From IMG/VR virus record IMGVR_UViG_3300047160_007109, positions 12,925 to 76,924 of that record: a stretch of DNA of 64,000 nucleotides, one strand, 5' to 3'. The stretch is from a virus. This document shows positions 568 through 58,180 of this stretch, one piece after another; the stretch's first letter is position 1, and each line of letters opens with the position of its first letter. The translations under genes were made by a program, and so were the position numbers. Under the pieces are notes generated by a model. It saw nothing but the letters and a program-made list of their open reading frames with translations, made no database searches and was not told the DNA's origin.

Positions 568-597
568 AGAATAGACCCGGCGGAGCACAATGTCTAG
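568..597 (-). promoter_or_regulatory. Dyad promoter copy: TAGACA-N17-TATTCT
   Basis: Matches 8-copy motif; upstream of conserved leader and ATG 529. Confidence 0.8.
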
Positions 598-1050
598 TCA
601 TGCTCGGGGATTTTCTCCGGGTCCGATCAGCCATGCGCCGTACGCCGGACGGTGCGCCCTGCCCTTCCGTTCCAGGTATTGGAGGGCGGCGGAGACGTCG
701 AGCACGGAGTCGTCGCGGCCGTGACCGTCGAGGATGAGGACGATCTCGGAGGGGCGGACCGGGCCGCGGGCTTCGCGGAGGACCCGTTCGACGGCGAGTG
801 CCTTGGGCATCGTCGGCCATTCCCGGCGCGCGCGCTCGACCTGCGCGCGGGCGAGGGCGGCGTCGACGATCTTCTCGCCGAACGTCGCGTGGAGCCTGGC
901 GAGTGGGACGCCGTCAGCTTCGGCTTCGGCGAGCGCGACGCGGAACCGTGCCATCTCGACCTCGGCGGCCGTCGCTCGTTTCTCGGCGAGGTCGTGGAGG
1001 ACGCGGAGATGCTCGATGTGTTGTTCGGGGGACATCGTCGCGTTCGGCAT
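598..1050 (-). CDS. Coiled-coil plus C-terminal winged-HTH DNA-binding protein
   Basis: C-terminal ALAVERVLREARGPVRPSEIV...DVSAALQYLERKGRAHRPAYGAW fits wHTH pattern. Confidence 0.65.
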   Translation of the reverse strand: MPNATMSPEQHIEHLRVLHDLAEKRATAAEVEMARFRVALAEAEADGVPLARLHATFGEKIVDAALARAQVERARREWPTMPKALAVERVLREARGPVRPSEIVLILDGHGRDDSVLDVSAALQYLERKGRAHRPAYGAWLIGPGENPRA

Positions 1051-1059
1051 ACGGCCCGG

Positions 1060-1089
1060 AGACTAGACCAAACCGGGGAACCTGTCTAG
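1060..1089 (-). promoter_or_regulatory. Dyad promoter copy: TAGACA-N17-TAGTCT
   Basis: GACTAGAC/GTCTAGTC inverted arms; -10 ends 9 nt before ATG 1050. Confidence 0.8.
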
Positions 1090-1413
1090 TCAGAACCCGA
1101 ATCGGGGGAGGGCGTCGGGGTCGGGCGGCGGTTCCCACGGTTCGACGGGAGCCGGGACGTACTGGCTTACGAGGAGCCCGAGCCGGGTAGAGACGCCGTC
1201 GAGGTCGCGGTGGATCCAGCCGTGATGACCCTCGCTGCCGGTCGCCCCACCGCAGACGGCGATGAGGTTCTCGGCGGTATCGGGTCCACCGCGGCCTCTT
1301 GGTTGCCGGTGGTGGAGGCGGACCCGGCCGTCGCACGGTCCCGGGGCGAGCCCGGCGACGCGGCAGGTGTGACCGTCGCGGGCGAGGACGGAGCGCCGGA
1401 GTTCAGGGTTCAT
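1090..1413 (-). CDS. HNH endonuclease
   Basis: VLARDGHTC...LHHRQPRGRGGPDTAENLIAVC...HHGWIH; start taken at MNPELRR. Confidence 0.85.
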   Translation of the reverse strand: MNPELRRSVLARDGHTCRVAGLAPGPCDGRVRLHHRQPRGRGGPDTAENLIAVCGGATGSEGHHGWIHRDLDGVSTRLGLLVSQYVPAPVEPWEPPPDPDALPRFGF

Positions 1414-1654
1414 CGGCGACGTGGAACTCCCGGGCCGGTTCGACGCCGGTCGGGATGACCCGGACCCGGACGGCCCGAGCATGGTCGGAGCGGGCGAGTT
1501 CGTCGTCCATGTGCGGGTCCCAGATGACGACGTCGTACCGGTGGCAGGCCGGGCAGGTCCCATCCCAGCGGTACGGTGCCGCCCGGAACCGGAGCGTGGC
1601 CCCGCACGCCGAGCAGTGCTCGTGGTCGACGAGCGGGAGCGGCGTGTCGGTCAT
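1403..1654 (-). CDS. Small Cys-rich hypothetical protein
   Basis: CSAC and CPAC pairs; overlaps neighbours. Confidence 0.55.
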   Translation of the reverse strand: MTDTPLPLVDHEHCSACGATLRFRAAPYRWDGTCPACHRYDVVIWDPHMDDELARSDHARAVRVRVIPTGVEPAREFHVADEP

Positions 1655-1926
1655 CCGGTGAACGTCGGCGGAGCCGGGAACGGGACCGGGGCGGTACTGG
1701 TCGTAATCAGGGGCGGACTGGTAGTAACCGGCGGCGGACTGGTTGTAGTCGGCGTCGTCGTGGTCACGGTCTGCGGAGGGCGGGTCGTCGACGGCGGAGA
1801 CGTGGTCGTAGTCGTGGTCGTCGACGTTGTAACCGGCGGCCGGGTGGTCGTAGTCGGGTGCGGATGCGGCGGCCGAGCCCAGCCGAGCCCGAGCACGGCG
1901 AGCCCGGCCACCGCGAGGCGCATCAC
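1651..1926 (-). CDS. Exported/membrane Thr/Pro-rich (mucin-like) small protein
   Basis: Hydrophobic N-terminus followed by TTTT/PP low-complexity tract; 4-nt overlaps on both sides. Confidence 0.6.
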   Translation of the reverse strand: MMRLAVAGLAVLGLGWARPPHPHPTTTTRPPVTTSTTTTTTTSPPSTTRPPQTVTTTTPTTTSPPPVTTSPPLITTSTAPVPFPAPPTFTG

Positions 1927-2573
1927 TCCGCGGCTCGTTCCTCCCGCTTCTGGCGGGCGATCTCGACCTCGTTCTGGATCTCCGACGGTGCGGGCGGGAG
2001 CGCGGCGGCTTCGGACCGGGCCGACGCCTCCCAGGCTTCGTCGGTCATGCCTTCCGGCTTGGAGAGTTCACGCCCGGCGGCGTCGAGGCGCTCGAACGCT
2101 TCCTCGGTTTCGCAGGCGAGGCAGCCGACGACGCGCTCCAGGGCGTGGTCGCCGACCTTGTGCGCCTCTTGAAGCGCCCGGTCGAGGCGGTACTGGCCGG
2201 ACTGCTCCTCACGGAAGATCCGGACCCGCTCCGCCTGGTCGCGGACCTGCGAGCGGATCACGTCGGCGGCGTCGCCGAGGAGCAGGAGCGCCGTCCCTGC
2301 CTTGAGCTTCTGGATGAACGTCCACTCGCCGGTCCACTCGGCGTCTTTCCCCTTCCCGGCCATCACCTTCTTGAAGCCGTCGCCGTCGACGGCGACCTCG
2401 AACACGACGTAGCCGGTCTCGGCGGCGGGGATGATGACCGGGTTGACGCCGACCGCGTCGGCGAGTCCGTGTCCGGTGTTGCTCACGTCGATCGCCATGC
2501 CGACGACGTCGCCGCCACGGTGGAGGGCGAGGCCGTTGTCGGCGAGGACGTCTGCGATCTTCTCGTTGGGCAT
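1923..2573 (-). CDS. Hypothetical protein
   Basis: MPNEKIADVL start behind GAAGGA; globular composition. Confidence 0.7.
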   Translation of the reverse strand: MPNEKIADVLADNGLALHRGGDVVGMAIDVSNTGHGLADAVGVNPVIIPAAETGYVVFEVAVDGDGFKKVMAGKGKDAEWTGEWTFIQKLKAGTALLLLGDAADVIRSQVRDQAERVRIFREEQSGQYRLDRALQEAHKVGDHALERVVGCLACETEEAFERLDAAGRELSKPEGMTDEAWEASARSEAAALPPAPSEIQNEVEIARQKREERAAE

Positions 2574-2626
2574 GGGCTGGTCCTTCGGGTTGGGGGAGCC
2601 GAGGCGGCTCGTCAGACTCGCATGTC

Positions 2627-3946
2627 TCAGTGTTCGGCGCTTGCCATCGGGACGCCCCAGTCGCCGTCCTCGATCCACGGCCAGAGCGCGCCGCGCTTGA
2701 GGATCTTCGGCCAGGATCGCTCGTCGCGGCCGGGGCGTACCTCGTAGAAGTCGGAGTAGCCGGGCTGCCCTTGGATCGCCTGGATCGCCATGACGAACTC
2801 CGGGGCGCGGAGCCAGAGGCGAGGCCCGGCCGGGCGCAGCGCGCGCTCGCCTGCGCCCTTGGCGAATACTTCGTGCGGGGCGTGGGTCTCCATGACGACG
2901 GCGCAGTTGTGACGGACCCGGATCTGGTTGATCGCCTTGATGACGCGGCGAGCCCCGGCCTGCTTCTCCTCGGCTTCGGAGTCCATCTGGTACGTCGGGC
3001 CGATGCAGAGGACGTCGACGCGGCCGTCGGGGAGCGCCGCGGCGTTCTTGTCGATTCGATCGTGGAGCCATCGCTCGTCGGCGGCGGAGGCGAGGTCGAT
3101 CCCTTCGGGACGGCAGGTCGGGATGAGTCGGGCCGGGTCGTAGAACCGGCCCTGCATCGACATTTCGAGCGTCGTCACGTTGGCGACCATCCGCTCGACC
3201 TTCTTGCGGGAGATGGTCGTCGGGTTCTCGAAGTCGACGAGGAGCACGTTGAACGCCTCGGGGAGCACGGTGAACCGGAACGGGTGCAGTCCGGCGCTCA
3301 TGGCGATACCGATCTGGCGGAGGAGCGACGTCTTACCGCCGCCCTCGGTCGCCACGATGAGGAGCCGCTCTTGGCGGGCGAGGAGCCCGGGGATGAGCCA
3401 GTCGAAGTCCTCGGTCTGGCGGAGCCACTCCTCGACGTTCGGGTCGGGCAGCCCGGCGACCATCTGCGTGTCGATCGCCTCGATCCGCTTGAGGGCGAGT
3501 TCGATCGCCTCGACGGCGTCGACCGTCTCGTCGTAGGCCGTCTCCGAGATGGCCGCGGACGCCGTGAGGAGCCGCCGCCGGGTCGAGGCGTTCTTGACGA
3601 GGACGGCGTACCGGGTGGCGTGCGCCGAGGCCGGAACTGATGCCTGGATGCGGAGCAGCGCGTTCTTGCCGCCGACGAGATCCAGGTCGGCAGAGCCGAG
3701 CGCCGCGGTGACGAGCAGCGGGTCGACGGCTCCGCCCGTCTCGGAGAGCCGCTCGATCGCCTCGTAGATGCGGGCGTTGCCCGGCTTGTAGAAGTCCTCG
3801 GCGGTGACGCCGACGTCGAGCGCGTCGCGGATCGCCTGGCGGGACATCATCATCGCCCCGAGGAGCGCCGTCTCGGCGTCGAGGTCGTGCGGCGGGACCC
3901 GTCCCGAGCGGGACGGTTCGTTGGGGATCGGGGTCTCGTCAGGCAC
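2627..3946 (-). CDS. Replicative helicase: DnaB-like N-terminal domain plus RepA/AAA_25-type ATPase
   Basis: PPHDLDAETALLGAMM (DnaB-N), Walker A ATEGGGKTS, LLVDFEN. Confidence 0.85.
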   Translation of the reverse strand: MPDETPIPNEPSRSGRVPPHDLDAETALLGAMMMSRQAIRDALDVGVTAEDFYKPGNARIYEAIERLSETGGAVDPLLVTAALGSADLDLVGGKNALLRIQASVPASAHATRYAVLVKNASTRRRLLTASAAISETAYDETVDAVEAIELALKRIEAIDTQMVAGLPDPNVEEWLRQTEDFDWLIPGLLARQERLLIVATEGGGKTSLLRQIGIAMSAGLHPFRFTVLPEAFNVLLVDFENPTTISRKKVERMVANVTTLEMSMQGRFYDPARLIPTCRPEGIDLASAADERWLHDRIDKNAAALPDGRVDVLCIGPTYQMDSEAEEKQAGARRVIKAINQIRVRHNCAVVMETHAPHEVFAKGAGERALRPAGPRLWLRAPEFVMAIQAIQGQPGYSDFYEVRPGRDERSWPKILKRGALWPWIEDGDWGVPMASAEH

Positions 3947-4838
3947 GTCGGGCTCCCCTCCGGGCGATGTACTCCTGCGCTGCGGCGAGATGCTCGGCGC
4001 AGTAGCCGACGTTGCCACCAGCGCCGTGATCTCCGCAGACACGGCAGTCGATCCGGGTCCACGGCATGTTGACGATCCGGTTCCAGTCGTCGTCGGTGAG
4101 CTTCCCGCCGTCGACGACGACGAGCGGAGGCGCGTTGGGACGGTCTGGGTCTCCGCCGCGGTAGTCCTCCCAGGACCCGTTGAGAAACTTGACCGGGTTC
4201 ATCACGTAGCCGCGCGCGACCACGTCGGAGGCCGCGTAGATCCGCGTCGCGTTGAGGAGTTCCTCGACGGACGCGTGAGCACGGAGGAGCGCGACCCATT
4301 TGCGACGCGCGTCTGACTTCCCCCGTTTGCGTGGGTAGATCGCCCAGAACGAGTCAAACGCGTCTCCCTGGTCCTCAAACAGTGACGAGGACGGCGACGC
4401 GCCATTGGACGGTTCATGGACGTCTATGGACGTATCGCGGCTGGACGGGTAGCCGCCCCCCGGCTGGACGGGTAGCCGCCCCCCGGCCAGATCCTGGCCC
4501 CCTACCCGGCCAGATTTCAGCCGCCCCCCTGATTCGGACCCGGCCGGATTCCGGCCGCCCTCCTCCTCGGGTTCGTCGAGGCCCGGGAGGACGAGCCGGT
4601 AGACGTTGGTCGCGCCGTCTCGGCGTTCGACGATCAACTCGCCGAGTTCCTCGGCGGTCCGGATCGCGTCGGTCACGGTCGCCCGGCTCACGCGCGCCAT
4701 GCGGGCGAGGGACTCCTTGCCGCGCCAGCATCCGGTGCCGTCGGAGTGCGACCGGTCGGCGATGGCGAGGAGAACGAGCCGGGTCGAGCCCCGGGTCTCG
4801 GAGTGGTCAAATACGGCCGTCATGGCCTTGATGCTCAC
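3939..4838 (-). CDS. Phage replication initiator (N-terminal HTH, C-terminal FWAIYPRK domain)
   Basis: RLVLLAIAD...LARMARVSRATV HTH; FDSFWAIYPRKRGKSDARRKW; directly upstream of helicase; internal DNA repeats. Confidence 0.8.
   Translation of the reverse strand: MSIKAMTAVFDHSETRGSTRLVLLAIADRSHSDGTGCWRGKESLARMARVSRATVTDAIRTAEELGELIVERRDGATNVYRLVLPGLDEPEEEGGRNPAGSESGGRLKSGRVGGQDLAGGRLPVQPGGGYPSSRDTSIDVHEPSNGASPSSSLFEDQGDAFDSFWAIYPRKRGKSDARRKWVALLRAHASVEELLNATRIYAASDVVARGYVMNPVKFLNGSWEDYRGGDPDRPNAPPLVVVDGGKLTDDDWNRIVNMPWTRIDCRVCGDHGAGGNVGYCAEHLAAAQEYIARRGARRA
4441..4486. repeat. Perfect 23-bp tandem repeat inside initiator gene (iteron-like, probable origin)
   Basis: ctggacgggtagccgccccccgg at 4441-4463 and 4464-4486, with degenerate ggccagat units following. 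Confidence 0.75.
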
Positions 4839-5053
4839 GGCATCCCCCTCCTGCTGTTTCGCGGGGAGGGCGGAGCCGATAGAGTCGGCCTCGGCCTCTC
4901 CGTGAAGTGTTGGTTCACGGCGATAGCCACTGACCCGCCCCGGGTAACAGGTCCCAGGGCAGGGGATCTTGAGTTGGCCCCGGTGATCCGCCGGGGTCGA
5001 CTCGCGTCAGGGGCGAGAGCATCGCGCGCCCAGCCCGCGCGCGCCAGCCCCAC

Positions 5054-5401
5054 TCACTGGACCCGAGCAGCCTCCACGAACGGCAGGAGAGCCCGGTTCC
5101 CCGCAGCGCGATCGTCGCCGAGCCAGACCCGCATCCGGACCCTCGTCGGACCGTGATTGTCGAACCAATGCATCGCGCCGGAGGCGACGAGCGCGTCGAT
5201 CCAGCCGATCCACTCCGGCCGCCCGTACCAGCCCGGCGACTTCGGCGGGATCATCAGCGTCGCGTCAGGGAGCCGGTCGGGGAACCGGCGGATCGTGTAC
5301 CCGCGCTCGACGTACTCGGCGAGGAACGGATCGTCGGCGTCGCCGCCGGGCTCGACGGTGATGACGTACGGGCCGTCGCCGCGGAACCCGACCCGGTTCA
5401 T
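5054..5401 (-). CDS. Hypothetical protein
   Basis: MNRVGFRG start overlapping upstream stop. Confidence 0.6.
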   Translation of the reverse strand: MNRVGFRGDGPYVITVEPGGDADDPFLAEYVERGYTIRRFPDRLPDATLMIPPKSPGWYGRPEWIGWIDALVASGAMHWFDNHGPTRVRMRVWLGDDRAAGNRALLPFVEAARVQ

Positions 5402-5589
5402 TTGACGAGGAGCCGGACCCACAGGACGGCCCAGGCGAGGACGAGAACGCCTCCAGCGATCATCACGACGGCGCAGCCGAGGTCGCGCCACGCCTGCGCC
5501 TGCTCGGACCGTCGCTTCCGCCGCTGGCGGCGAGGGTCGGGGTCCTCCCCGAACGGGACGAGGTCCTGAGACGACGTGCGCGGGCTCAT
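5398..5589 (-). CDS. Small membrane protein
   Basis: C-terminal hydrophobic helix AVVMIAGGVLVLAWAVLWV. Confidence 0.6.
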   Translation of the reverse strand: MSPRTSSQDLVPFGEDPDPRRQRRKRRSEQAQAWRDLGCAVVMIAGGVLVLAWAVLWVRLLVK

Positions 5590-5750
5590 GGTGCAGCCTC
5601 GTCGCTCAAGCCGAGGATCGGCTCCGTCGGCGGATCCTGGATGACCATGTTGTGGCCGCAGGAACGGAACAGGCCGCGCCGAGACGCGGAGACCCACCGC
5701 GGCGACTTCCCACACACTGGGCAGGCCGGGAGGCCCGTCAGACCGCTCAC
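5586..5750 (-). CDS. Small zinc-ribbon protein
   Basis: CPVC...C-H; GTGA overlap with helicase stop. Confidence 0.5.
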   Translation of the reverse strand: MSGLTGLPACPVCGKSPRWVSASRRGLFRSCGHNMVIQDPPTEPILGLSDEAAP

Positions 5751-7261
5751 GATGCCGCCTCCTCCGCTTCGTCGTCTTCCCCGGCCGGTTCTGGCGGCTG
5801 GATGATGTGACGGACCCAGCGATCGTCGAGACCGTGCCGAGCCCGAGTCGACGCGACGTACAGGAGCCGCAACTCCTCCGGCGGAGGCTCCTCCTCGCGT
5901 GCCAGCCGGGCCTCGAAATCGTCGGAGAGGAGCACCGTCGGCCACTCCCTCCCCTTCGCCTTGTGCGCCGTCGAGACGATCACGTCAGCGTCGGGTTCCG
6001 GCATCGGATGGCCGAGCGCCGTGATGATCGTCGTCGTGCCGAACTCCTCGACGAGCCGGAAGTTGAGCGCGAGGTCGGAGCCGGACGGGTCGTTGGCGAC
6101 GTAGTCCTCGACCTCGGCCCACGACTTGAAACAGGCGAGGTCCGGGTGCGACGAGAAGCCTTCCTCGCGGAGTTGGCGAGCACCGCGGGCGAACGCGAGG
6201 ACTTCCTTGCCGCCGCCGACGAGATGCGGCGCTCCACCGTCCTGCTGATGGTCGAGGACGTGGCGGACAGCCCGAGCATTCGACCGGCAGAGGATCGCCG
6301 TGTGCGCCTCGTGCGCGCCGACGCGGGACTCGACGGCGTCGTGTCCACGGACTCGGAGCGTCTCGCCGAGGCGGGCGAGGATCAGGTTGGCGTGCTCGGC
6401 GATCGGGTGGCCGAACCGGAATGACTGCGTCAGGTGAGCCCGAGCCGACGCGTCGATCTTGGCGAGGGCGTCGACCGCGCCGCGCCACTGGTAGATCGCC
6501 TGGCGGGAGTCGCCGACCCAGACCCGCTGCGCGTGGTCTTGGCGTTCGACGATGTCGAGCAGGACCGGGTTGGCGTCTTGGGCCTCGTCGAACAAGATCA
6601 CGTCAGCGTCGATCTTCGGGGTCCCGAGTTGCCAGACCTTGAGGTAGACGTCGTGGGAGAAGCGGAGCGTCCCGCCAGGCGACGAGAGGTCAGCCCAGGC
6701 GGTGCGGAGCGCCGGGAGCATCTCCTCGGCGACCGCGTTGTTGTTGACGTACGTCCGCCGTCCGCCGGAGGCGAGCACGTCGATCCCTTCGACGTACGGG
6801 AAGTGCCGGGCCGTCGGCTCCGGGTCGGCCGTCTGGCAGAACGCCGTCGCGGCGCGCATGACGTGCGAGGCGAGCCAGCCGCGCGGGAGCGTCTTGGTCT
6901 GGCTGCCGTACGTGATGTCGAACCCGTAGGTGATGCCGAGCCGGTCGGCGATCTCGATGGAGCGGAGCCGCTTCGACTGGAGCCGATGGGCGTACTGGCG
7001 GCCGACGGCGGCGAACGCGAGCGAGTGCGCCGTCCGGGCCGAGACGTTGCCTGGCATCGAGTTCTCGGCGTCGGTGACGATCGCCTTGTTGAACGCGACG
7101 TACTGGAAGCGGAGCGCCGGGACCGTCGCGGCGATGAACCGCAGCGTCGACGTTTTGCCGGTCCCGGCGAGCGCCTCGATGGCGATGTTCTCCTCCTCGG
7201 AGACGAACAGGTCGCGTGCGGCTTGCTGCTCGTCGGTCGGCTCGAACCCGAGGGCGGTCAT
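5747..7261 (-). CDS. UvrD/Rep-like superfamily 1 helicase
   Basis: ALAGTGKT, FDEAQD, VGDSRQAIYQWRGA, LTQSFRFG, STAHKAKGREW, LYVASTRAR; start at ATGA overlap. Confidence 0.92.
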   Translation of the reverse strand: MTALGFEPTDEQQAARDLFVSEEENIAIEALAGTGKTSTLRFIAATVPALRFQYVAFNKAIVTDAENSMPGNVSARTAHSLAFAAVGRQYAHRLQSKRLRSIEIADRLGITYGFDITYGSQTKTLPRGWLASHVMRAATAFCQTADPEPTARHFPYVEGIDVLASGGRRTYVNNNAVAEEMLPALRTAWADLSSPGGTLRFSHDVYLKVWQLGTPKIDADVILFDEAQDANPVLLDIVERQDHAQRVWVGDSRQAIYQWRGAVDALAKIDASARAHLTQSFRFGHPIAEHANLILARLGETLRVRGHDAVESRVGAHEAHTAILCRSNARAVRHVLDHQQDGGAPHLVGGGKEVLAFARGARQLREEGFSSHPDLACFKSWAEVEDYVANDPSGSDLALNFRLVEEFGTTTIITALGHPMPEPDADVIVSTAHKAKGREWPTVLLSDDFEARLAREEEPPPEELRLLYVASTRARHGLDDRWVRHIIQPPEPAGEDDEAEEAAS

Positions 7262-7617: not shown

Positions 7618-7630
7618 GCGTCTCCTCCGC

Positions 7631-11053: not shown

Positions 11054-11076
11054 TCGCGCTGGGGTGAGACAGTTAC
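11054..11076 (-). promoter_or_regulatory. 23-bp motif GTAACTGTCTCACCCCAGCGCGA (copy 1 of 2)
   Basis: 22/23 identical to 15294-15316; both lie 43-48 nt upstream of a start codon. Confidence 0.6.
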
Positions 11077-11198: not shown

Positions 11199-11303
11199 TC
11201 ATCGGAGTGCGCCTTCGAGGAAGCCGCACGTCAGGACGAGCGTCATCAGGAACAGGAACGGCCACCAGTTCCAGTACCAGTGGGCGATGCGTTGACGGTT
11301 CAT
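11199..11303 (-). CDS. 34-aa Trp-rich membrane peptide (MNRQRIAHWYWNWWPFLFLMTLVLTCGFLEGALR)
   Basis: First ORF after promoter 11343 with CCCGAGGAGGG RBS; below ORF-track cutoff. Confidence 0.65.
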   Translation of the reverse strand: MNRQRIAHWYWNWWPFLFLMTLVLTCGFLEGALR

Positions 11304-11342: not shown

Positions 11343-11372
11343 AGACTAGACGAACCGGGCGGCGAAGTCTAG
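11343..11372 (-). promoter_or_regulatory. Dyad promoter copy: TAGACT-N17-TAGTCT
   Basis: 8-copy motif followed by GTAGCCAACC leader. Confidence 0.8.
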
Positions 11373-13418: not shown

Positions 13419-13901
13419 CTACCGGATGGGCGTGTACGAGAACCGCTCCCCTCCCCTCGGGCCGAACTCGACCGACCGGGCCGCGTAGCCCTTGCGGACG
13501 AGATGCGCCATCGCCGACGGCGAACCGATCTCGGCGAGCGGAACCGGAGCGCCGCGCTTGGCCTCGGACCGGCGGACGAGGTTGAGGAACATCGACCGCT
13601 GGTGAGACGTGAGCGCCGGGCGGCCCTTCCGCTCGACCTTGATGGCCGCCTCGAAGTCGTCCGCCTCCAGGAGTTCCCGGATGGAGAAGTCGGCGACCGT
13701 CTCGGGCGAGCCGTTGACCGGGTGACGAGGAGCCACGCCGACGTGCGTGTAGCCCACGCGGCGCAGGTTCTCCAGACCGGAACGGTCGGGACGGACCGGG
13801 ACCGGGAGCGTGACCCAGCCGCTTGGGCAGTGCGCCTCGACCACGACCGGCGAGAGGTTCTCGAACCGGCCCTCGAAGTGCTTGCGGATCTTGCTGTTCA
13901 T
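13419..13901 (-). CDS. Hypothetical protein, possible C-terminal winged helix
   Basis: First gene after promoter 13939; LTSHQRSMFLNLV...MAHLVRKGY. Confidence 0.7.
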   Translation of the reverse strand: MNSKIRKHFEGRFENLSPVVVEAHCPSGWVTLPVPVRPDRSGLENLRRVGYTHVGVAPRHPVNGSPETVADFSIRELLEADDFEAAIKVERKGRPALTSHQRSMFLNLVRRSEAKRGAPVPLAEIGSPSAMAHLVRKGYAARSVEFGPRGGERFSYTPIR

Positions 13902-13938
13902 GGTCCCTCCTCGGGGTCCAGGGTGGTTGGCTACGAAC

Positions 13939-13968
13939 AGACTAGACCAAACCGGAGCCGTTGTCTAG
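13939..13968 (-). promoter_or_regulatory. Dyad promoter copy: TAGACA-N17-TAGTCT
   Basis: GACTAGAC/GTCTAGTC arms; followed by GTAGCCAACC leader. Confidence 0.85.
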
Positions 13969-15293: not shown

Positions 15294-15316
15294 TCGCGCC
15301 GGGGTGAGACAGTTAC
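15294..15316 (-). promoter_or_regulatory. 23-bp motif GTAACTGTCTCACCCCGGCGCGA (copy 2 of 2)
   Basis: Near-identical to 11054-11076; upstream of DUF932 leader. Confidence 0.6.
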
Positions 15317-15387: not shown

Positions 15388-15624
15388 CTACGCAGGCGTT
15401 CCTCCTTCCAGTCGGACCGTCGCCCGGTGCCGGGCGACCCACTTGGCGACCGCCTCCTCCGGCGTCGAGACGCCGATGGCTGACGGGGTGATGGACGTCC
15501 TCCAGTCGTCCGTTTGCCACCACTCGGAATCGAGGTACGCAACGTGCGTCTCGACGCTCCAGTCCGGGTGGCAGAGGTAGGACTGGAGCACGGTCTGGTA
15601 GACGGAGAGCCGGTCGCTGGTCAT
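15388..15624 (-). CDS. Hypothetical protein
   Basis: ORF in operon. Confidence 0.6.
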   Translation of the reverse strand: MTSDRLSVYQTVLQSYLCHPDWSVETHVAYLDSEWWQTDDWRTSITPSAIGVSTPEEAVAKWVARHRATVRLEGGTPA

Positions 15625-15788
15625 CCGAAGATGACCAGCGGGACGGCCGGGACCGGCTTGTGGACCCGGACGAACGGCACGAACACCGTCTCGCCCTCGG
15701 GCGTCTCGACCTCGTAGGCCGTGAGCGTCATGCCGACGATCACGCCCTCGGGAAGCCGGGAGCCGGTCGGGAGCGGAAAACTGTTCAT
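15621..15788 (-). CDS. Small hypothetical protein (MNSFPLPTG...)
   Basis: ATG behind CCCGAGGAGGG, first gene after promoter 15842. Confidence 0.65.
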   Translation of the reverse strand: MNSFPLPTGSRLPEGVIVGMTLTAYEVETPEGETVFVPFVRVHKPVPAVPLVIFG

Positions 15789-15841: not shown

Positions 15842-15871
15842 AGACTAGACCATACGGGGCACGTTGTCTAG
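15842..15871 (-). promoter_or_regulatory. Dyad promoter copy: TAGACA-N17-TAGTCT at late/early boundary
   Basis: 8-copy motif immediately after lysis cassette. Confidence 0.85.
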
Positions 15872-47104: not shown

Positions 47105-47184
47105 CTGAGCGAACTCCTCGGTCTGCGCGGCCCCGGAATCGGGCGCGCGTGCGATCGGTGGGTCCGTCCGCTCAGGGCGTGGCG

Positions 47185-47223
47185 GCTGCGACTTGCTGCG
47201 CTCGCTTGCTGCGACTTGCTGCG
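47185..47223 (-). repeat. Short direct repeats (CGCAGCAAG x3) in 250-bp MCP leader
   Basis: cttgctgcg at 47192, 47205 and 47215; 16-mer gctgcgacttgctgcg twice. Confidence 0.7.
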
Positions 47224-47354
47224 TCTGCTCTTGGCGGGAGAGTCAAGCACGTCCGCGACGGCGAGTCGAGGATGCTCGGGAATCGTCCCTCAGACCCGGC
47301 TCAGATTGCCTCTCCTGCCGATCGGAGCCGGGATGGGCCGAGAGTGCCGGACCG

Positions 47355-48137: not shown

Positions 48138-48177
48138 CGGGACCTCCTGGGATCGAACTGCGGTGAGGGTAGCGGGA

Positions 48178-52135: not shown

Positions 52136-52370
52136 GTGCCGTGTCGTCGATCGCCGCGGCGCGCGCCGCCGCTTCCCGTTCCCGGCGGCGACGCCGGTCG
52201 CGTTCGGCGAGTCCCTTCGCCTTCCCGGCGGCCCGGATCCTCGCTTGGCGCTCAGAGCGGCTCTCTGCCGGTCTCTCCGTCCTCAGGAGATTCCCCTCAC
52301 GGTCGTACACTCGGACGTCGGAGAAGCGAGGACGGTCTTCGGGAGGCCCGGCCGGGCTGGGGCTACTCAC
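52071..52370 (-). CDS. Basic Arg-rich hypothetical protein
   Basis: Helical RSERQARIRAAGKAKG; overlaps the longer GNAT start. Confidence 0.45.
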   Translation of the reverse strand: MSSPSPAGPPEDRPRFSDVRVYDREGNLLRTERPAESRSERQARIRAAGKAKGLAERDRRRRREREAAARAAAIDDTARGTPAGRRSEWRRGRSPGSSA

Positions 52371-52466
52371 CGTTGGCTAGCTCGATTTCGCGCCATCCGC
52401 CTTCGTCGTGTCCGCTGTGCACGCGCCGACTCTGCTGCGGGCTCGGACCGGGCCTCCCGGGCGAGA

Positions 52467-53354
52467 CTAGACCCGCTCCACCGTTCCGGCCATCCGGTCG
52501 AGGACCTCGACCACGTCCGGGTCGTCGACCTCGGCGATGCCACGCTCGAAGTAGACGTTGTGCCGGGCAGCGCGCACGACCCGAGACGGCGACCGGAACC
52601 GGACCGGCCGGTCGAGCGGCTTCGCTTCCTCCGGCATCTGCCCGGCGAGGAGAGCGCGCATCAGCCGTGGGACCTCATCGGCGGACTGGTACGCGCGGAG
52701 GAGCGTGATCGAGCCGGGGTACAGCGGCGACCGTGCGCCGGGCGTCTGATGCGGGTGCCACAGATGCCAGACGTGCCCGTCGAGGAACCATCCGGGGCCG
52801 AGGAGCGTCGACAGTGCCCGGCCCCACGCCTCGTCTTCGCCGCCCCAGCCGCGGAACCGTGGGTCGAGCGGGCAGGCATCCCAGCCCGACGCGGGCAGGA
52901 CGACGATGCCGCCGCCGCGGACGCCGACGTACTCCCGCCGGTCGAGCGTCCCCGGAGCCAGGATCGGTGACTGCCCGGCGGCCGTCGCCTCGTACAGCGC
53001 CCTCGTCGTTTCCGGACGGAGGCGGCGGACGGTCTCGTACGGCATCGCCCACGGCGCGGCCCGGTCGACGATCTTGCGGACGCAGCGGGCGAGCGCCGAG
53101 CGGGTGACGAACACGTCGGCGTCGGCGACGACGAGGACCGTCGCTTCCGTCTCGGAGCGTGCTCGGGCGAGCGCCTCGCCTTTGCTCCACCACGGATCGC
53201 CGGGGCCGCGCTCGTCCGGTGTCCGGTCGGGCTTGCCGACGACGATGTCCCAGTCGGGGAAGTCCCGCCGGTACCGGTCGCGGACGTAGCCGAACGCGGC
53301 GTCGCGCCACTCGTCGAGGCCTGAGACGTACGGGATGAGGACGGCGACGCTCAC
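52467..53354 (-). CDS. Glycosyltransferase (GT-A fold, galactosyltransferase-like C-terminal motif)
   Basis: VAVLIP, VVADADV, DPRFRGWGGEDEAW, HLWHP. Confidence 0.85.
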   Translation of the reverse strand: MSVAVLIPYVSGLDEWRDAAFGYVRDRYRRDFPDWDIVVGKPDRTPDERGPGDPWWSKGEALARARSETEATVLVVADADVFVTRSALARCVRKIVDRAAPWAMPYETVRRLRPETTRALYEATAAGQSPILAPGTLDRREYVGVRGGGIVVLPASGWDACPLDPRFRGWGGEDEAWGRALSTLLGPGWFLDGHVWHLWHPHQTPGARSPLYPGSITLLRAYQSADEVPRLMRALLAGQMPEEAKPLDRPVRFRSPSRVVRAARHNVYFERGIAEVDDPDVVEVLDRMAGTVERV

Positions 53355-53369
53355 CGTCCGATCATGGCG

Positions 53370-53582
53370 TCAGCCGTCGCGTTGCTCGCGGACCCGGGCG
53401 TCTTCGATCTCGACCATCGGGATCATCCACCAGTGCAGGATCGCGGCGAGCCCGGCCATGAACATCGCCGTGTGGACGAGCCAGCCGACGCCGCCGCCTG
53501 CCATCGCCTCGGTGCGGTCGAGGAGCATCCCCCACCATGCGCCGACCGTGACCGGCAGGAGAATCCCGCCTCTCGGCCTCAG
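53370..53582 (-). CDS. Possible two-TM membrane protein (CTG start inferred)
   Basis: ILLPVTVGAWWGML...WLVHTAMFMAGLAAILHWW; overlaps upstream stop. Confidence 0.45.
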   Translation of the reverse strand: MRPRGGILLPVTVGAWWGMLLDRTEAMAGGGVGWLVHTAMFMAGLAAILHWWMIPMVEIEDARVREQRDG

Positions 53583-53824
53583 CGTCCCTCTCCTGCCGTT
53601 CGGCTTCCGGGAGGGGCGAACGTGGCCCGAGCCCGAGCGAGACGCTCCTCCGCCGTTTCAGCGGCCGTGATCGCCCGGTCGATTCCGGTCACGTCGGCAG
53701 TGTCGCCGAACTTGCGGATCCGCGCCCGGCGAGCGCCGCGCTTGTACGAGACGTACCGGTGGAGGGCGGCCGTAACGTGGCCGCCCTCCTCCTCGGTGAA
53801 CTCGATGACGAGCCTGCGGCCCAT
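53579..53824 (-). CDS. Hypothetical protein
   Basis: ATGA overlap. Confidence 0.6.
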   Translation of the reverse strand: MGRRLVIEFTEEEGGHVTAALHRYVSYKRGARRARIRKFGDTADVTGIDRAITAAETAEERLARARATFAPPGSRTAGEGR

Positions 53825-54705
53825 CAGTCGCCGTCCTCGATCCGGTTCAGCCGGTCGTCGGGGATGGCGTCCCAGTACCGGCCCGACGGGACGTCGACCC
53901 AGAGGACCCGCCCAGCGACGCGCCGCCCCCGGTTGTACCGGTCCCAGACGATGCGAGCGACGGCCGTGCCGACGTCGCCCTCGACCCGAACCTCGATCCG
54001 GAGGGTGCGTGCCGCGGCGAGGAGCCGCCGGGACGGGTTCGCCTCCAGGATCTTGTAGAGGCGCTTCTCGTCGATGACGTGGGCGTAGCGGGACAGGACG
54101 ACGGCCGTGCCGAGGATGACCTCCCCGGCGAGCGGCTCCTCATCGGCGTGACCTGCCTTGACGAGCAAGTCGAGCGTCCGGTCGAGGATCTCCGGCCCGG
54201 CTCCCTTGAAGATGCGGCGCAGCGTCTCCGGCGAGCGGATCGCCCCAGCCCGGCGCAGGTTCCGGTTCACGGCGAGGCCGTTCTTGCGGATGATCCGGTC
54301 GATGGCGACCGTCTCCGGGTCCTTGGCGGCGAGGAGCGCGATGTAGACGTCGACCGTGTGCGGGCGGACCCGCTTCACGTTCATGTCGGCGAACAGCTTC
54401 GCTTCCCGCTCCCGGCTCAGACCGTGGAACACCTGACACGGAACACGTTCGTGTTCGCCCCACAGGTCCAGGATCGCGGCCTGCCGGTGCTGGCCGTCGA
54501 GGATGACTTCCTCGCCGGAGTCGCGGCGGCTGATCGTGAACACGCCGACGAGGTCCGGGTCGAACTCCCGGGCGATCTTGTCGACGCGGCGACGATCGAG
54601 GCACCGCTGATACTTCGGGTCGACGGCGAGGTCTCCGACCGGGAGCCACTCGAACGTCTGCTTGGTACCGCCTCCTGCGAGAGACTTCTCACGCGGAGCC
54701 ATCAT
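53824..54705 (-). CDS. ParB/DGQHR-like (DUF6551-type) protein
   Basis: LAVDPKYQR...VILDGQHRQAA...EAKLF..MN. Confidence 0.8.
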   Translation of the reverse strand: MMAPREKSLAGGGTKQTFEWLPVGDLAVDPKYQRCLDRRRVDKIAREFDPDLVGVFTISRRDSGEEVILDGQHRQAAILDLWGEHERVPCQVFHGLSREREAKLFADMNVKRVRPHTVDVYIALLAAKDPETVAIDRIIRKNGLAVNRNLRRAGAIRSPETLRRIFKGAGPEILDRTLDLLVKAGHADEEPLAGEVILGTAVVLSRYAHVIDEKRLYKILEANPSRRLLAAARTLRIEVRVEGDVGTAVARIVWDRYNRGRRVAGRVLWVDVPSGRYWDAIPDDRLNRIEDGD

Positions 54706-55258
54706 TGGGTTCCCCTTCCGGGTCGTGGCCGTCTCCCAGGCGGCCGAGGTTTGACGGGAGACCTGAGTCGAGGCCGTCGTTGAGGACCTCGATGAGCGGA
54801 CGGGGCGCAGGCTGTTTCCAGTAGCCGTAGACGCAGCGCGTCCCACCGCGGGAGCAGTCGTACGTGTCGTGGAGGACGCCGTCGATGACGGCGGCGATGT
54901 GGCGGGAGAGGCGGACGACGAGCCGTCCCATCGGGAGTTCGATCTCGCGCAGGTGGATCCGGCAGCCGGAGCCGATGCTCATGGTCGGGTGCCACTCCCA
55001 GCCGAGCGTCTCCTCCAGGTACGGCCGGTAGACCGACTTGTGGACGCCCTCCCGGGCGGAGCGCGACTTGCCGCGGCGTGCCATGCCGAACGCCATGTCG
55101 GCATAGACCGTCCGGTACGAGATGCCGGAGGCGATCGCGATGGCCCGGGTGACGCAGTCCCCGGCGGAGCCCTTGAACCCGGCTTCGGCGCGGCCGCCGT
55201 CGTCCTTGACGAACGTGATGGCGTACCGGCCGTCGTCGCCCATGATGATCTGAGTCAC
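54689..55258 (-). CDS. Conserved phage protein, putative papain-like Cys-His-Asp fold
   Basis: GDCVTRAIAIA...SRHIAAVIDG..HDTYD...CVYGYW. Confidence 0.65.
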   Translation of the reverse strand: MTQIIMGDDGRYAITFVKDDGGRAEAGFKGSAGDCVTRAIAIASGISYRTVYADMAFGMARRGKSRSAREGVHKSVYRPYLEETLGWEWHPTMSIGSGCRIHLREIELPMGRLVVRLSRHIAAVIDGVLHDTYDCSRGGTRCVYGYWKQPAPRPLIEVLNDGLDSGLPSNLGRLGDGHDPEGEPNDGSA

Positions 55259-55566
55259 GATGCCTCCGGGGCGGGAGCGCCCGGGTAGTCGGCGTCCCAG
55301 TCGGGATCGTCGGCGGGTTCGGAGCCGTTGCAGACGCCGCACCATCCCTGCGGGTCGGAGGCGTGCGAGCGGGCGAGTTCGAGCGTCGGGTGGCCGACGA
55401 GGCGGTTGTGGTCCTCGCAGACGGTGAACCACTTCACGTTCGGGTCTCCGGTGTCGTCGAGCCCGGCCTGAGCGCCGTGGTAGACGCCGACGATGGTGCC
55501 GGACTGCCGGGTCCGGGACCGCTGGACGCAGCCCTCGAACCCGGCGTGGCAGTAGTGGCGGCTCAT
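55255..55566 (-). CDS. Cys/His-containing hypothetical protein
   Basis: CEDH...WCGVC. Confidence 0.6.
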   Translation of the reverse strand: MSRHYCHAGFEGCVQRSRTRQSGTIVGVYHGAQAGLDDTGDPNVKWFTVCEDHNRLVGHPTLELARSHASDPQGWCGVCNGSEPADDPDWDADYPGAPAPEAS

Positions 55567-55925
55567 GCGAGGGCCTCCTCGGCGTCGAGGGTGCGCTCCC
55601 ACTGCGCCGCCTCGTAGTCGTCCTGCGAACGCCACGCTGCGATCTGCTCGGCGTGACCGGGGCAGGCGCAAGCGTCGTGGAGAACCGGGAGGCCGCAGCG
55701 ACCCGACGTCGGACCGTCTTCGGTCCAGACCTGGATGATCTCGCCGCAGACGACCGGGACGGCCGTACCGCCCGAGGCGGGAGCGACGTACGTGCGACCC
55801 GACGCCGCGACCCGGACGACGTAACCGGCGTCGAGAGCGAGACGAACGTGATCGGTAGCGACGCCCGGGCGATCGAAGTCCGGGCCGTAGGTGCCTTCTA
55901 CGAGTCCTGAGATGAAGCGGCGCAT
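55563..55925 (-). CDS. Hypothetical protein
   Basis: First gene after promoter 55963, CCCGAGGAGGG RBS. Confidence 0.7.
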   Translation of the reverse strand: MRRFISGLVEGTYGPDFDRPGVATDHVRLALDAGYVVRVAASGRTYVAPASGGTAVPVVCGEIIQVWTEDGPTSGRCGLPVLHDACACPGHAEQIAAWRSQDDYEAAQWERTLDAEEALA

Positions 55926-55962
55926 GGTCCCTCCTCGGGGTCCGGTGGTTGGCGACAAGGGC

Positions 55963-55992
55963 AGTCTAGACGATGCGGGAGCGAAAGTCTAG
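55963..55992 (-). promoter_or_regulatory. Dyad promoter copy: TAGACT-N17-TAGACT
   Basis: 8-copy motif plus GTCGCCAACC leader. Confidence 0.8.
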
Positions 55993-56543
55993 CCCCCAAT
56001 TTCTGCGGGCTCAGGGGCGAGCCCGAAATCCTCCTCGGAGAGCAAATCCACGACGATCGAGCGGACGTAGTCCCGGTCGGGGAACGGGTCGACCCCGGCG
56101 AGCCAGGCGCAGCGCGTCACGATCGGACGGCCGTACGCATCGGTGCCGTCGAGCAACTCGACGCCGATCTGGTTGAACCCGAACTCGAACAGGTCGTAGA
56201 CCTGCTGGCGGTACTCGGCGAACGCCGGAGTACCACGCCGGACGTCGCCGTCCTCGACGTACGGCTGCCACCACAGAGCGGCCCGAGCGTGGCGCATCAG
56301 GATCTCGGCGTTGCCGTCGAACCCGTCGGGGCGTGGGAACTTCCAGCGTGACGCCTCGGGGCCGTCAGCGTACGTCTCTTGCCGTTCGACCCACTGGGCT
56401 CGACCGTAGACCCAGCCCTCCCCGAACGAGTGGATCGGGTCCTGCTCATCCGGCTCGATGCGGAGCCGGAGGATGCGGCCGTCGGGCAGCGTGTAGCTGG
56501 CGTCGTCGGCGAGGGCGTCGGCGATCTCGGACGTGGTGGTCAT
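55989..56543 (-). CDS. Hypothetical protein
   Basis: 184 aa globular ORF. Confidence 0.7.
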   Translation of the reverse strand: MTTTSEIADALADDASYTLPDGRILRLRIEPDEQDPIHSFGEGWVYGRAQWVERQETYADGPEASRWKFPRPDGFDGNAEILMRHARAALWWQPYVEDGDVRRGTPAFAEYRQQVYDLFEFGFNQIGVELLDGTDAYGRPIVTRCAWLAGVDPFPDRDYVRSIVVDLLSEEDFGLAPEPAEIGG

Positions 56544-56794
56544 AACGCCTCCTTGAGCGCGGCTCGGACGTGACGTTCGGCGGAGGCGAACGCCTCCATC
56601 TCGCCGTAGTGCCAGCCGGACGATTCCCAGCCGCAGGTGCAGTACGCCTTGTAGTCGGCCGAGCCCGGCCGGGAGCGGAACGCCTTACCCCAATCCATGC
56701 CGGTCGTGATCGTGTGGCCGGGCACGTCGGCGTTGCGGACGAACAGAGCCGCCGCGCGCCGCCGCTTCATGTACCGGTCGACGGAGTCGGTCAC
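56540..56794 (-). CDS. Hypothetical protein
   Basis: CTCGW..H motif. Confidence 0.6.
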   Translation of the reverse strand: MTDSVDRYMKRRRAAALFVRNADVPGHTITTGMDWGKAFRSRPGSADYKAYCTCGWESSGWHYGEMEAFASAERHVRAALKEAL

Positions 56795-56919
56795 GGCCGA
56801 GCCTCCCGCTCGACGATGTCGAGTCCCTTCGCCCGGAGAGCGGCGAGGAAGTCCGGCGACTTCGCCATGACGGACAGCGGGATCGTGTCGAGGACGTCGA
56901 GGATCTGCTCGTCGGTCAC
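56791..56919 (-). CDS. Small hypothetical protein (42 aa)
   Basis: GTGA overlaps on both sides. Confidence 0.55.
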   Translation of the reverse strand: MTDEQILDVLDTIPLSVMAKSPDFLAALRAKGLDIVEREARP

Positions 56920-57077
56920 GGCTGGACGACCTTGATGATGCCGTCGCGGGCGAGCGCCCGGACGAGCCGATCGGCCTCGACCTTGGCCGGGTCCGGCGAC
57001 CACGGCCCGGTCGGGTTCGGCCAGGGCGTACCGGGCTCCGGCAGCGCCGGAACGTCGAACAGGGTGAGAGCGGTCAT
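56916..57077 (-). CDS. Small hypothetical protein (53 aa)
   Basis: ATG behind CCCGAGGAGGG. Confidence 0.6.
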   Translation of the reverse strand: MTALTLFDVPALPEPGTPWPNPTGPWSPDPAKVEADRLVRALARDGIIKVVQP

Positions 57078-57118
57078 GGCGGTTCCCTCCTCGGGAGACA
57101 GTGTGCGGGTCGGGTGTG

Positions 57119-57325
57119 TCACCGGAGCTTCGCTCCGGCCTCGCGGTCGGCCTCGGCCTGGAGGCCGAGTTGGGCGATGCGGAACGTGAGCGCCGTCACG
57201 TCCCATCCCGCCTCGTCGTACGCCTCGGCGTGCCGGGCGCAGACTTGCGACACGTGGTCCCCGCTCCGGGCCGTGTGCGTGTACGGCGAGGAGCAGCGGC
57301 GGCAGCGGTCGCGTGCGACGGTCAT
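57119..57325 (-). CDS. Small Cys-containing protein
   Basis: CRRC...C..H. Confidence 0.5.
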   Translation of the reverse strand: MTVARDRCRRCSSPYTHTARSGDHVSQVCARHAEAYDEAGWDVTALTFRIAQLGLQAEADREAGAKLR

Positions 57326-57606
57326 CGCAGCACCAACCATGCTGCTTCGCACGCCCCGGCGATGGCCGAGTTGAGAGCGACGAGAGCGGCGGCTGCCTTG
57401 GCGGCGGACTCCTCGTCCGAGCCGAACAGGTCCTCCTCCGAGCGGAACTCGTCGACGTCCTGCATGGCGTCTTCGAGAGCGCCGGTCTCGGCCATCTCGT
57501 CGGCGTCGATGACGGCCCGGAACAGGTCCGAGTGGAGCGCGAGCCCGACGTTGTAGCGGGCGTCGAGTTCCGGGAACTGCATGCGGGTGGCGGGGTTCTT
57601 GCTCAT
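57322..57606 (-). CDS. Acidic hypothetical protein
   Basis: First gene after promoter 57644. Confidence 0.7.
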   Translation of the reverse strand: MSKNPATRMQFPELDARYNVGLALHSDLFRAVIDADEMAETGALEDAMQDVDEFRSEEDLFGSDEESAAKAAAALVALNSAIAGACEAAWLVLR

Positions 57607-57643
57607 GGTCCCTCCTCGGGGTCCGGTGGTTGGCGACAGGTCA

Positions 57644-57673
57644 AGAATAGACCCGGCGGGAGCCGTTGTCTAG
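57644..57673 (-). promoter_or_regulatory. Dyad promoter copy: TAGACA-N17-TATTCT
   Basis: 8-copy motif plus GTCGCCAACC leader. Confidence 0.85.
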
Positions 57674-57676
57674 TCC

Positions 57677-57877
57677 CTAGCGGGGCCGGATGATGAAAAG
57701 TTCGGTGAAGGTCATCCCGTTCCCCTTCGCGTGGGGGATCAGGTCGAACTCCACGTCGACGAGCCCGGCGGCCTGGAGCACCTCGACCGTGCGGCGAGCC
57801 CGGCCGTTGCGGCGAACCTCGCCACGCTCGCGGACGAGGGCGAGGAGCGCCTCCTGCGGGGCGGTGAGCTTGGTCAT
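57677..57877 (-). CDS. Small protein, possible winged helix
   Basis: KLTAPQEALL...TVEVLQAAGLV. Confidence 0.6.
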   Translation of the reverse strand: MTKLTAPQEALLALVRERGEVRRNGRARRTVEVLQAAGLVDVEFDLIPHAKGNGMTFTELFIIRPR

Positions 57878-58002
57878 CGGACGAACTCCTTCTTGAGTGA
57901 CGAGCGGACAGCGCCGCGCTTGCCGATCTTCCGATCGCGCTGCTCGGCGAGGTAGAGCTTGTGGCCCTGGTAGCGGGACGGGTAGTGGACTGAGCGGCTC
58001 AC
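57874..58002 (-). CDS. 42-aa basic peptide
   Basis: GTGA/ATGA overlaps; below ORF-track cutoff. Confidence 0.5.
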   Translation of the reverse strand: MSRSVHYPSRYQGHKLYLAEQRDRKIGKRGAVRSSLKKEFVR

Positions 58003-58112
58003 CGGGCGACCTCCTGCGTGGTGGCGTCGAGGACCTCGTCGCACAGGGCGAGGAAGTCGTCGATCCGGCGGTTGATCCGCTCCCGGATCTTGGTGGTGGG
58101 GTTCTGCTCCAT
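57999..58112 (-). CDS. 37-aa peptide (MEQNPTTKIRER...)
   Basis: ATG behind CCCGAGGAGGG, first gene after promoter 58151. Confidence 0.6.
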   Translation of the reverse strand: MEQNPTTKIRERINRRIDDFLALCDEVLDATTQEVAR

Positions 58113-58150
58113 CGGGACCCTCCTCGGGCTCGTTCCTGCTGGCACCCCCG

Positions 58151-58180
58151 ACACTAGACCAAACCGGAGCCGATGTCTAG
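58151..58180 (-). promoter_or_regulatory. Dyad promoter copy: TAGACA-N17-TAGTGT
   Basis: 8-copy motif in divergent intergenic gap. Confidence 0.8.

Follow-up and report, generated by a model that had tools for sequence, protein, structure and literature searches.

In temperate actinophages such as L5 and phiC31, a single phage repressor works through many highly conserved sites scattered among the non-structural genes, namely the gp71 stoperators in the former and a set of conserved inverted repeats in the latter. The L5 stoperators are asymmetric sites of 13-14 bp, oriented with transcription and lying mostly inside transcribed regions, where they halt elongation; in phiC31 the repeats are compact palindromes of 17 bp that stand apart from unusual early promoters. 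Operators of the Cro/CI, TetR and Fur types are palindromes embedded in the promoter, 13-21 bp in total length, whose half-sites are centred about one helical turn from each other and which lie in the spacer or over one hexamer; through them, one small dimer could switch many promoters. In phi29 the regulator p4 binds as an elongated dimer to 5'-AACTTTTT-15 bp-AAAATGTT-3', at sites that overlap the -35 of early promoters and mediate the early-to-late switch (PMC1904284, PMC3100819). Cluster O mycobacteriophages carry 8-9 strongly predicted SigA-like promoters, some of them leaderless, as well as a dyad repeated more than 30 times (PMC4351075). Here we describe a repeated 30-bp element, in its most regular form the dyad CTAGAC-N15-GTCTAG overlaid on a -35 and a -10 hexamer, in a 64,000-nucleotide (nt) stretch of viral DNA (IMG/VR record IMGVR_UViG_3300047160_007109, contig positions 12925-76924; this whole stretch is called “the window” below). 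Each copy is very probably a promoter, and the evidence leans towards its being at the same time the operator of a dimeric factor.

The element shares with the p4 sites its inverted arms of 6-8 bp, the separation of exactly 15 bp between them and the overlap with an early-promoter element. However, p4 sites are A-tract-rich and bending-dependent, whereas the spacer and arms found here are GC-rich and free of A-tracts; the phi29 sites are four and clustered, whereas the 12 present ones are scattered over as many transcription units; and the second arm of the present element extends over the -10 of the same promoter. Because of the lack of A-tracts, and because no p4-family protein was matched by Pfam among the ~70 proteins scanned (a part of the open reading frames, ORFs), the likeness to p4 is one of geometry and working and not of family membership. 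Unlike a stoperator, the element is symmetric, ~30 bp long and coincident with a promoter, which sets it outside the Cluster A stoperators; unlike in phiC31, site and promoter are the same 30 bp; and unlike in operators of the Cro/CI, TetR or Fur type, the half-sites are 21 bp apart and each lies on one promoter element. The Cluster O dyad, TGTTCGG-N3-CCGAACA (17 bp), is likewise separate from the promoters of its phages, to which it has no fixed relation (PMC4351075). Repeated phage promoters with a built-in operator are thus of a familiar kind, whereas one arm per promoter hexamer combined with lineage-specific alleles is uncommon.

The contig that contains the window measures 84,747 bp and is 81% complete according to CheckV. 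For each copy two starts are in use, that of the motif and that of the dyad three positions further on (e.g., 568 and 571, or 1060 and 1063). A preliminary description of the window had listed eight minus-strand copies of TAGAC(A/T)-N17-TA(G/T)(T/A)(C/G)T, and exactly these eight matches were recovered (Table 1), against a chance expectation of 0.00 in 100 dinucleotide-preserving shuffles; the looser pattern TAGAC-N18-TAnnnT returned the same eight sites, with 0.07 expected. The other details of that description also stood: the CTAGAC-N15-GTCTAG dyad is perfect in six copies (0 expected), three of these (dyad starts 1063, 13942 and 15845) have 8-bp arms reading GACTAGAC/GTCTAGTC, and the arm centres lie 21 bp apart. 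The dyads at 571 and 57647 have one mismatch each (ATAGAC on the plus strand). When all 6-mer dyads with gaps of 0-25 bp were counted without bias, CTAGAC with gap 15 came out as the top dyad of the genome (9 copies vs 6 for the runner-up). Extending the motif search, as had been suggested, to the full contig and to relatives raised the number of copies in the contig to 12, four of them beyond the window, and located the element in related soil-phage contigs. The tetramer CTAG is itself strongly avoided in this genome, with 37 occurrences against ~236 expected, i.e., about six-fold under-represented, and 22 of the 37 fall inside motif copies. Most CTAGs outside the copies seem to coincide with stop codons, judging from the ones inspected.

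Of the 129 genes mapped by codon usage, 126 lie on the minus strand. Replication and recombination functions (DnaB, replication initiator, helicase, RecT, Gam) occupy 2.6-9.9 kb of the window, the structural module at ~17-53 kb includes the tape measure, the adaptor, the major head protein and a further head protein with matches of the portal/protease type, and in the section from 53 to 64 kb, as well as at the upper end of the contig, small orphan genes occur alongside glycosyltransferases, methyltransferases and a cold-shock protein. All 12 copies lie on the gene strand. The claim that the structural region is devoid of full copies was borne out, none being present between window positions 15871 and 55966 (a module of ~40 kb), whereas the label of an “early” regulon proved too narrow, since the copies head essentially all non-structural blocks, including those for replication, recombination, DNA modification and glycosyltransferases. 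After most copies the ATG follows at 36-42 nt (once 56 nt) from the dyad and is preceded by a ribosome-binding site (RBS), GAGGAGGG; at window 1063 and contig 5105 it follows after 12 and 10 nt, respectively, which is the layout of leaderless mRNAs. Behind the copies at contig 5612 and 81264 lie ORF-less stretches. Genes upstream frequently stop right before the element or within the TAG that its left arm contains, and a strong hairpin was detected upstream of one copy only (window 13939), so that systematic upstream terminators were rejected; the copies thus read as promoters internal to an array of co-directional genes and not as the heads of terminator-bounded units. Between the predicted start site and the RBS, most copies are followed by a leader box, (T/A)CTG-N5-7-GCCA(A/G)A(C/T)CAC, that is common to the lineages introduced below and may be a translational or RNA-stability element.

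A nucleotide search against cultured phages returned no relative, and the capsid matched only 114-123-kb Gordonia siphophages at 24% identity. The DUF932 gene that sits between two copies led to relatives, namely G001 (a 36-kb IMG/VR contig, 77% identity) and a soil phage spread over many contigs (84% identity). A scan of JGI metagenomes for the architecture CTAG-N19-CTAG-nnT followed by the leader and CCGAGGAGGG brought up contigs C and D, both multi-copy and both of the same soil series, which by gene content are two parts of one phage type (phage C in the following) and whose proteins are mostly 40-90% identical to those of the present phage. Oriented copies number 11 in C and six in D (two of them common to C), and a further contig, E, has one. 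The genomes are mosaic among relatives, and copies track gene direction on both strands in phage C, which has an inverted module, and in G001, where a divergent gene pair is served by two separate copies. Beyond these relatives, an exact-motif scan of IMG/VR returned merely single chance matches in low-GC contigs, and the motif was absent from 80 relatives found through the helicase (identity ≤55%). Three look-alikes were set aside: CGTACG-N15 repeats in three of the helicase-based relatives are tandem iterons at one place and not dispersed promoters; CTAGG-N17-CCTAG, seen in three contigs of 62% GC, is single-copy in both whole records scanned; and a high-GC contig, L014, has clustered, short-spaced CTAGAC palindromes in a different arrangement. 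In the latter (L014:2235-2420, IMGVR_UViG_3300031825_000019, an unrelated viral contig of 71% GC), a divergent intergenic region is full of CTAGAC/GTCTAG palindromes such as CTAGACG-GTG-CGTCTAG, which may be an operator cluster for another regulator reading the same word. The helicase of phage C (L122:17941-20265, 774 residues) carries an intein (PF14890) that is missing from the 515-residue ortholog of the present phage (window 5747-7294).

Conservation was counted over 28 oriented sites from 4 contigs, with positions numbered from the first base of the dyad. CTAGA at positions 1-5, TCTA at 23-26 and T at 30 are invariant (28/28), followed by C6 (27/28), G27 (26/28), G-1 (23/28), C29 (22/28), G22 (21/28) and A7 (20/28), while the remaining spacer and flanks are mostly near background information. 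The 6-bp dyad of the preliminary description therefore holds for the six window copies but not across the related phages, in which the strictly kept dyad has 5 bp (CTAGA/TCTAG). All three defined bases of a TAnnnT -10 (T25, A26 and T30) are present in 28/28 sites, and T30 lies outside the dyad, its mirror position -2 being G in 20/28 and A in just 2/28. Because T30 has no symmetric partner, the element, with A7 also taken into account, would read as TAGACA-17-TAGnnT, a promoter of the actinobacterial SigA/HrdB type. The spacer is 17 bp in all copies with a 23-nt offset and 18 bp in three variants, and the -35 agrees with TTGACA at 5/6 bases, the second position being A instead of the consensus T in 28/28; it is this A that makes the arm. 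In Streptomyces coelicolor, promoters have a TANNNT -10 and an NTGACC -35, the commonest 5' untranslated region (5'UTR) is 30-39 nt long, and 21% of transcripts are leaderless (PMC4895711); the 5'UTR predicted here, ~30 nt or none, falls within those distances, the host being presumably actinobacterial. In a neutral scan of 29 kb with an E. coli-type sigma-70 model, only two promoter-like sites emerged, both of them the motif copies with a GTCTAT right arm, which break the dyad yet improve the -10 to TATTCT. Runs of at least four A/T occur upstream of 7/28 copies (0.8 expected). The promoter reading is thus well supported by the orientation with the downstream gene (on both strands in relatives), the fixed distance to RBS and ATG, and the invariant TAnnnT.

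The symmetry is conserved beyond what a promoter requires. C1, T23 and C24, which are invariant and outside the needs of a SigA model, mirror G27, A5 and G4, and G-1 and C29 are symmetrically retained. G001 keeps the same geometry and leader, with a CTAG-to-CTAG distance of 23 nt (24 nt at two sites), and its arms read CTAGC...GCTAG at 5/6 sites, with the -10 still TAGnnT, a pair present in 0/28 sites of the other lineages, so that the change affected the two arms jointly at several sites. Symmetry for bidirectional transcription was considered and rejected, since the opposite-strand -10 would end in C (position -2 being G in 20/28) and thus lacks the final T, and since G001 uses two copies for its divergent pair. 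Comparisons with a structured RNA or an intrinsic terminator were likewise negative: the folding energy of the element is -9.3 kcal/mol, vs -8.5 ± 3.1 for random genomic 31-mers (arms alone -4.8), none of nine arm mismatches is compensated (seven at position 22 and two at position 27), no pair of variable positions co-varies above shuffles within sites (positions 7 and 21 pair in 2/28), no U-tract is present at the element, and no Rfam family matched in the contig ends, the parts that were searched. Of the preliminary proposal that promoter and operator coincide, the promoter part is hence well supported, and the operator part is supported indirectly, by invariant mirrored bases that a promoter does not need, by the two-arm change and by the negative stem tests.

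We propose that each copy would be recognized by the housekeeping sigma factor of the host, probably of the SigA/HrdB type, through the -35 TAGACA, the 17-bp spacer and the -10 TAGnnT. Transcription would start ~7 nt past the -10 and yield a leader of ~30 nt with the strong RBS, or a leaderless mRNA at two copies, and the 12 copies together would drive essentially all non-structural gene blocks. Superimposed on this would be a two-fold site, (G)nCTAGA(C)-N15-(G)TCTAGn(C), one arm of which falls on the -35 hexamer and the other on the -10 hexamer together with the three bases just before it. As the arm centres are two helical turns apart, both arms lie on one face of the DNA, and an elongated dimeric DNA-binding protein could occupy both, competing with RNA polymerase or trapping it at all copies simultaneously. 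The outcome would probably be a genome-wide off switch for the non-late genes; an on switch is less likely. For a lineage of uncultured high-GC soil phages that is almost wholly unannotated, one 30-bp element marking 12 transcription units provides a ready-made map of the non-late regulon, as well as a compact, strong and probably switchable promoter-leader cassette for GC-rich actinobacteria. A split dyad with one arm per promoter hexamer is an unusual design of a promoter as its own operator, and with three sets of alleles occurring in nature (CTAGA/TCTAG, CTAGC/GCTAG and the TATTCT escapes) it is directly testable.

The symmetry could also be a founder accident, inherited by every copy of one promoter-leader cassette that was copied around the genome. 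The copies do share the leader box and RBS besides the hexamers, as fits a cassette spread by duplication or recombination in mosaic genomes, and a -10 beginning with TAG satisfies the TANNNT consensus unaided (PMC4895711). Against this, C1, the A3 of the -35, T23 and C24 are invariant despite a diverged spacer and flanks, a 5-mer adjoining the -10 would by chance match the reverse complement of the -35 5-mer in ~1 of 1000 cases, and the base pair swapped on both arms at 5/6 G001 sites needs a concerted change for which descent alone is insufficient; we therefore regard a promoter without an operator as unlikely. It appears improbable that the site belongs to a dimeric activator or sigma appropriator, in which case promoters with an off-consensus -35 would be of the middle class and fire only once an arm-bound phage protein recruits RNA polymerase. 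A protein bound over the -10 would collide with sigma region 2, the most upstream blocks, which would need something to transcribe them first, have copies too (contig 81264 and 71078), and the two copies that gain a TATTCT -10 at the expense of the dyad suggest independent recognition by the polymerase. These objections stand against the invariant departure of the -35 from consensus, targets that include replication and DNA-modification genes, which are typical middle functions, and the precedent of phi29 p4, which activates the late promoter A3, with its poor -35, from a site of like geometry (PMC3100819).

Binding of the arms by a host regulator, for example a GntR/HutC-type protein such as DasR that would couple phage expression to host physiology, is very improbable, because the arm sequence varies among related phages of the same soil, which a phage-encoded partner explains more easily. 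The dre box of DasR, which we take to be TGGTCTAGACCA, contains both arm sequences in fused form, the right arm of several copies contains TGGTCTAG and their left arm, read on the opposite strand, CTAGACCA, and the rare CTAG words could be reserved for regulators; each arm, however, matches half a dre-type box only, with the other half unrelated, and the arms are 21 bp apart and not fused. Least probable of all is a nucleic-acid structure, be it a processing site, attenuator or N4-type hairpin promoter, formed by pairing of the arms in read-through RNA or in DNA that is single-stranded or supercoiled, for although the arms are complementary, the G001 change is compensatory and the few terminators between units mean that read-through RNA would include the element, the stem has 5-8 bp around a 15-nt loop, fails the folding, compensation, co-variation (flanks and spacer included), U-tract and Rfam comparisons given above, and keeps its arm sequence itself invariant, unlike stems that are selected for structure.

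The preferred reading, a promoter that is also an operator, calls for a dimeric regulator, and the best of the candidates considered, although a doubtful one, is g26, whose gene lies behind the copy at 1063 and whose protein is modelled as two long N-terminal helices plus a C-terminal winged helix. The model, built from an alignment of remote relatives, has a canonical winged helix (pLDDT 91), with the recognition helix at residues 116-128, and its fold matches the DNA-binding domains of MarR, Fur/Zur and IclR, and members of the family match HARE-HTH, Mrr_N and HTH_12. A homodimer through the N-terminal helices is predicted with a score of 0.59 vs 0.11 for the best control; in the calibration sets, this mark was reached by 20/30 proteins with same-chain-pair structures and by 1/23 with single-chain ones, proportions that apply here only approximately since the alignment used for g26 was custom-made. 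The winged helix is ~85% identical between the two lineages with CTAGA arms, as estimated from the alignment, and the layout of copy 1060, tight against the ATG of the g26 homologue, is retained in phage C. The C-terminus of g49 is also winged-helix-like, which makes g49 a weaker candidate. Three further proteins were rejected: g105 is a membrane protein with two transmembrane (TM) helices and not a repressor; g102 has just a weak HTH_20 match and is not conserved in the sister phage; and the ParB-like g92 co-occurs with the motif, but arms 21 bp apart do not suit binding of the ParB/KorB type, which takes place at compact palindromes with adjacent half-sites. An apparent g26-like match in G001 turned out to be a spurious one, to a zinc-ribbon ORF.

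Several points weigh against the operator reading and its assignment. The co-variation of the arms is a single evolutionary event, because only three lineages are available, and the G at position 23 in G001 also makes an extended -10 (TGn), an alternative cause of the change. Copies that share a leader could in part be recent duplicates, which would inflate the apparent conservation. Pfam identified no classical repressor among the ~70 proteins scanned, a g26 homolog was not found in the 36-kb G001 contig, which covers 58% of a genome of that type, and the remote relatives of g26 (coiled coil plus HARE-HTH/Mrr_N-like winged helix; L184-L187) sit in bacterial defence or mobile islands and therefore offer no test of a link to the dyads; g26 may have another role, e.g., reading modified DNA. 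The actinobacterial host is deduced only from the GC content of 70%, the RBS, Pfam families typical of actinophages and the remote capsid likeness to Gordonia phages. The phage was seen in 24 soil DNA runs from 18 studies and in 0 RNA runs. As a separate observation, the neighbours of the remote g26 relatives include OLD-type nucleases, large helicase-containing proteins and transposases.

An operon on the minus strand of the contig (129-5094), headed by the degenerate motif copy at 5105, encodes a P-loop nucleotide kinase (PF18751), a pyridoxal-phosphate-dependent enzyme, an amino-acid:DNA transferase (PF18724), a Tet/JBP dioxygenase (PF12851) and two ParB_N proteins, and looks like a cassette for DNA base hypermodification. 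Together with the glycosyl- and methyltransferases at 59-64 kb of the window, it suggests modified DNA rather than, or alongside, glycosylation of the virion. HARE-HTH and Mrr_N modules have been linked to recognition of modified DNA. In a bolder form of the operator reading, to which we give only a small chance, one elongated phage dimer, possibly g26, would clamp the -35 and -10 of every non-late promoter, so that promoter and operator are the same 30 bp and the copies co-evolve with the regulator, as in the A:T to C:G exchange on both arms in a sister lineage, and the switch might sense hypermodified thymines in the arms and in this way tell injected from replicated phage DNA. Sensing of modified thymines is considered because of the Tet/JBP, kinase and amino-acid:DNA transferase genes and the resemblance of the g26 winged helix to HARE-HTH/Mrr_N.

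Table 1 Motif copies and associated features of the contig and window (predicted genes and leader included).
Feature	Window position	Dyad start in contig	Strand	Sequence features	Genes and placement
Motif copy		106			
Motif copy		5105		degenerate	
Motif copy		5612			
Motif copy	568..597	13495	-	variant right arm GTCTAT; -35 TAGACA, 17-bp spacer, -10 TATTCT	heads g25 (359 residues; DUF6011-like in a relative); dyad to ATG 41 nt
g26	598..1050		-	150 residues	behind copy 1060
Motif copy	1060..1089	13987	-	perfect dyad, 8-bp arms	heads g26; dyad to ATG 12 nt; transcript would be leaderless or nearly so
Motif copy	11343..11372	24270	-	perfect dyad	heads membrane-like ORF of 34 residues (11199-11303) and block through Gam, RecT and helicase genes
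Conserved leader example	13902..13938		-	leader box, then CCGAGGAGGG (RBS), then ATG; predicted 5'UTR ~30 nt	
Motif copy	13939..13968	26866	-	perfect dyad, 8-bp arms	heads g49 (13419-13901)
Motif copy	15842..15871	28769	-	perfect dyad, 8-bp arms	ATG of g52 (15621-15788) 56 nt downstream; first copy after structural module
Motif copy	55963..55992	68890	-	perfect dyad; -10 TAGACT	heads g95-g89, incl. ParB-like protein; left-arm TAG is stop codon of upstream gene g96; last copy before head genes
Motif copy	57644..57673	70571	-	variant right arm GTCTAT; -10 TATTCT	heads g101 (57322-57606)
Motif copy	58151..58180	71078	-	perfect dyad; -10 TAGTGT	heads g104, g103, g102; g105 divergent
g105	58208-58552		+	114 residues, two predicted TM helices, acidic tail	only sizeable plus-strand gene; divergent from copy 58151
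Motif copy		81264			

Some further features of the gene array were recorded. A TATACA hexamer lies 7 nt before the GTG of g105, which is a leaderless layout, and the g105 homologue of phage C heads a co-directional DUF932 operon. In the present phage the DUF932 gene is g50, which is preceded by g51. A second upstream element, GTAACTGTCTCACCCC(A/G)GCGCGA, occurs on the minus strand at window 15301-15316 and 11061-11076, ~60 nt before the RBS of g51 and g42, respectively; sequence further upstream of both copies is conserved, both are kept in phage C (L122 near 9934 and 14797), and they may represent another class of promoter or an RNA element. The contig as a whole yielded no tRNA, and neither an integrase nor an immunity gene was recognized in this 81%-complete sequence.

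The ORF-less stretch of ~480 nt below the copy at contig 5612 (L005:5131-5611, minus strand; also L110:16330-16400 and L178) contains blocks, among them GGAGCCCGAACGGTAAGG...GGAGAACGG...ACCCGAGA, that are kept in all three lineages. Conservation extends over a greater length between the present phage and phage C, and the stretch, for which Rfam gave no match, may be a non-coding RNA or a long leader transcribed from the motif promoter. Short repeats of the GCAGCAAG type occur in the gap of 250 bp that precedes the major head gene (window 47105-47354) and recur just below the copy at contig 81264 (~81220-81250).

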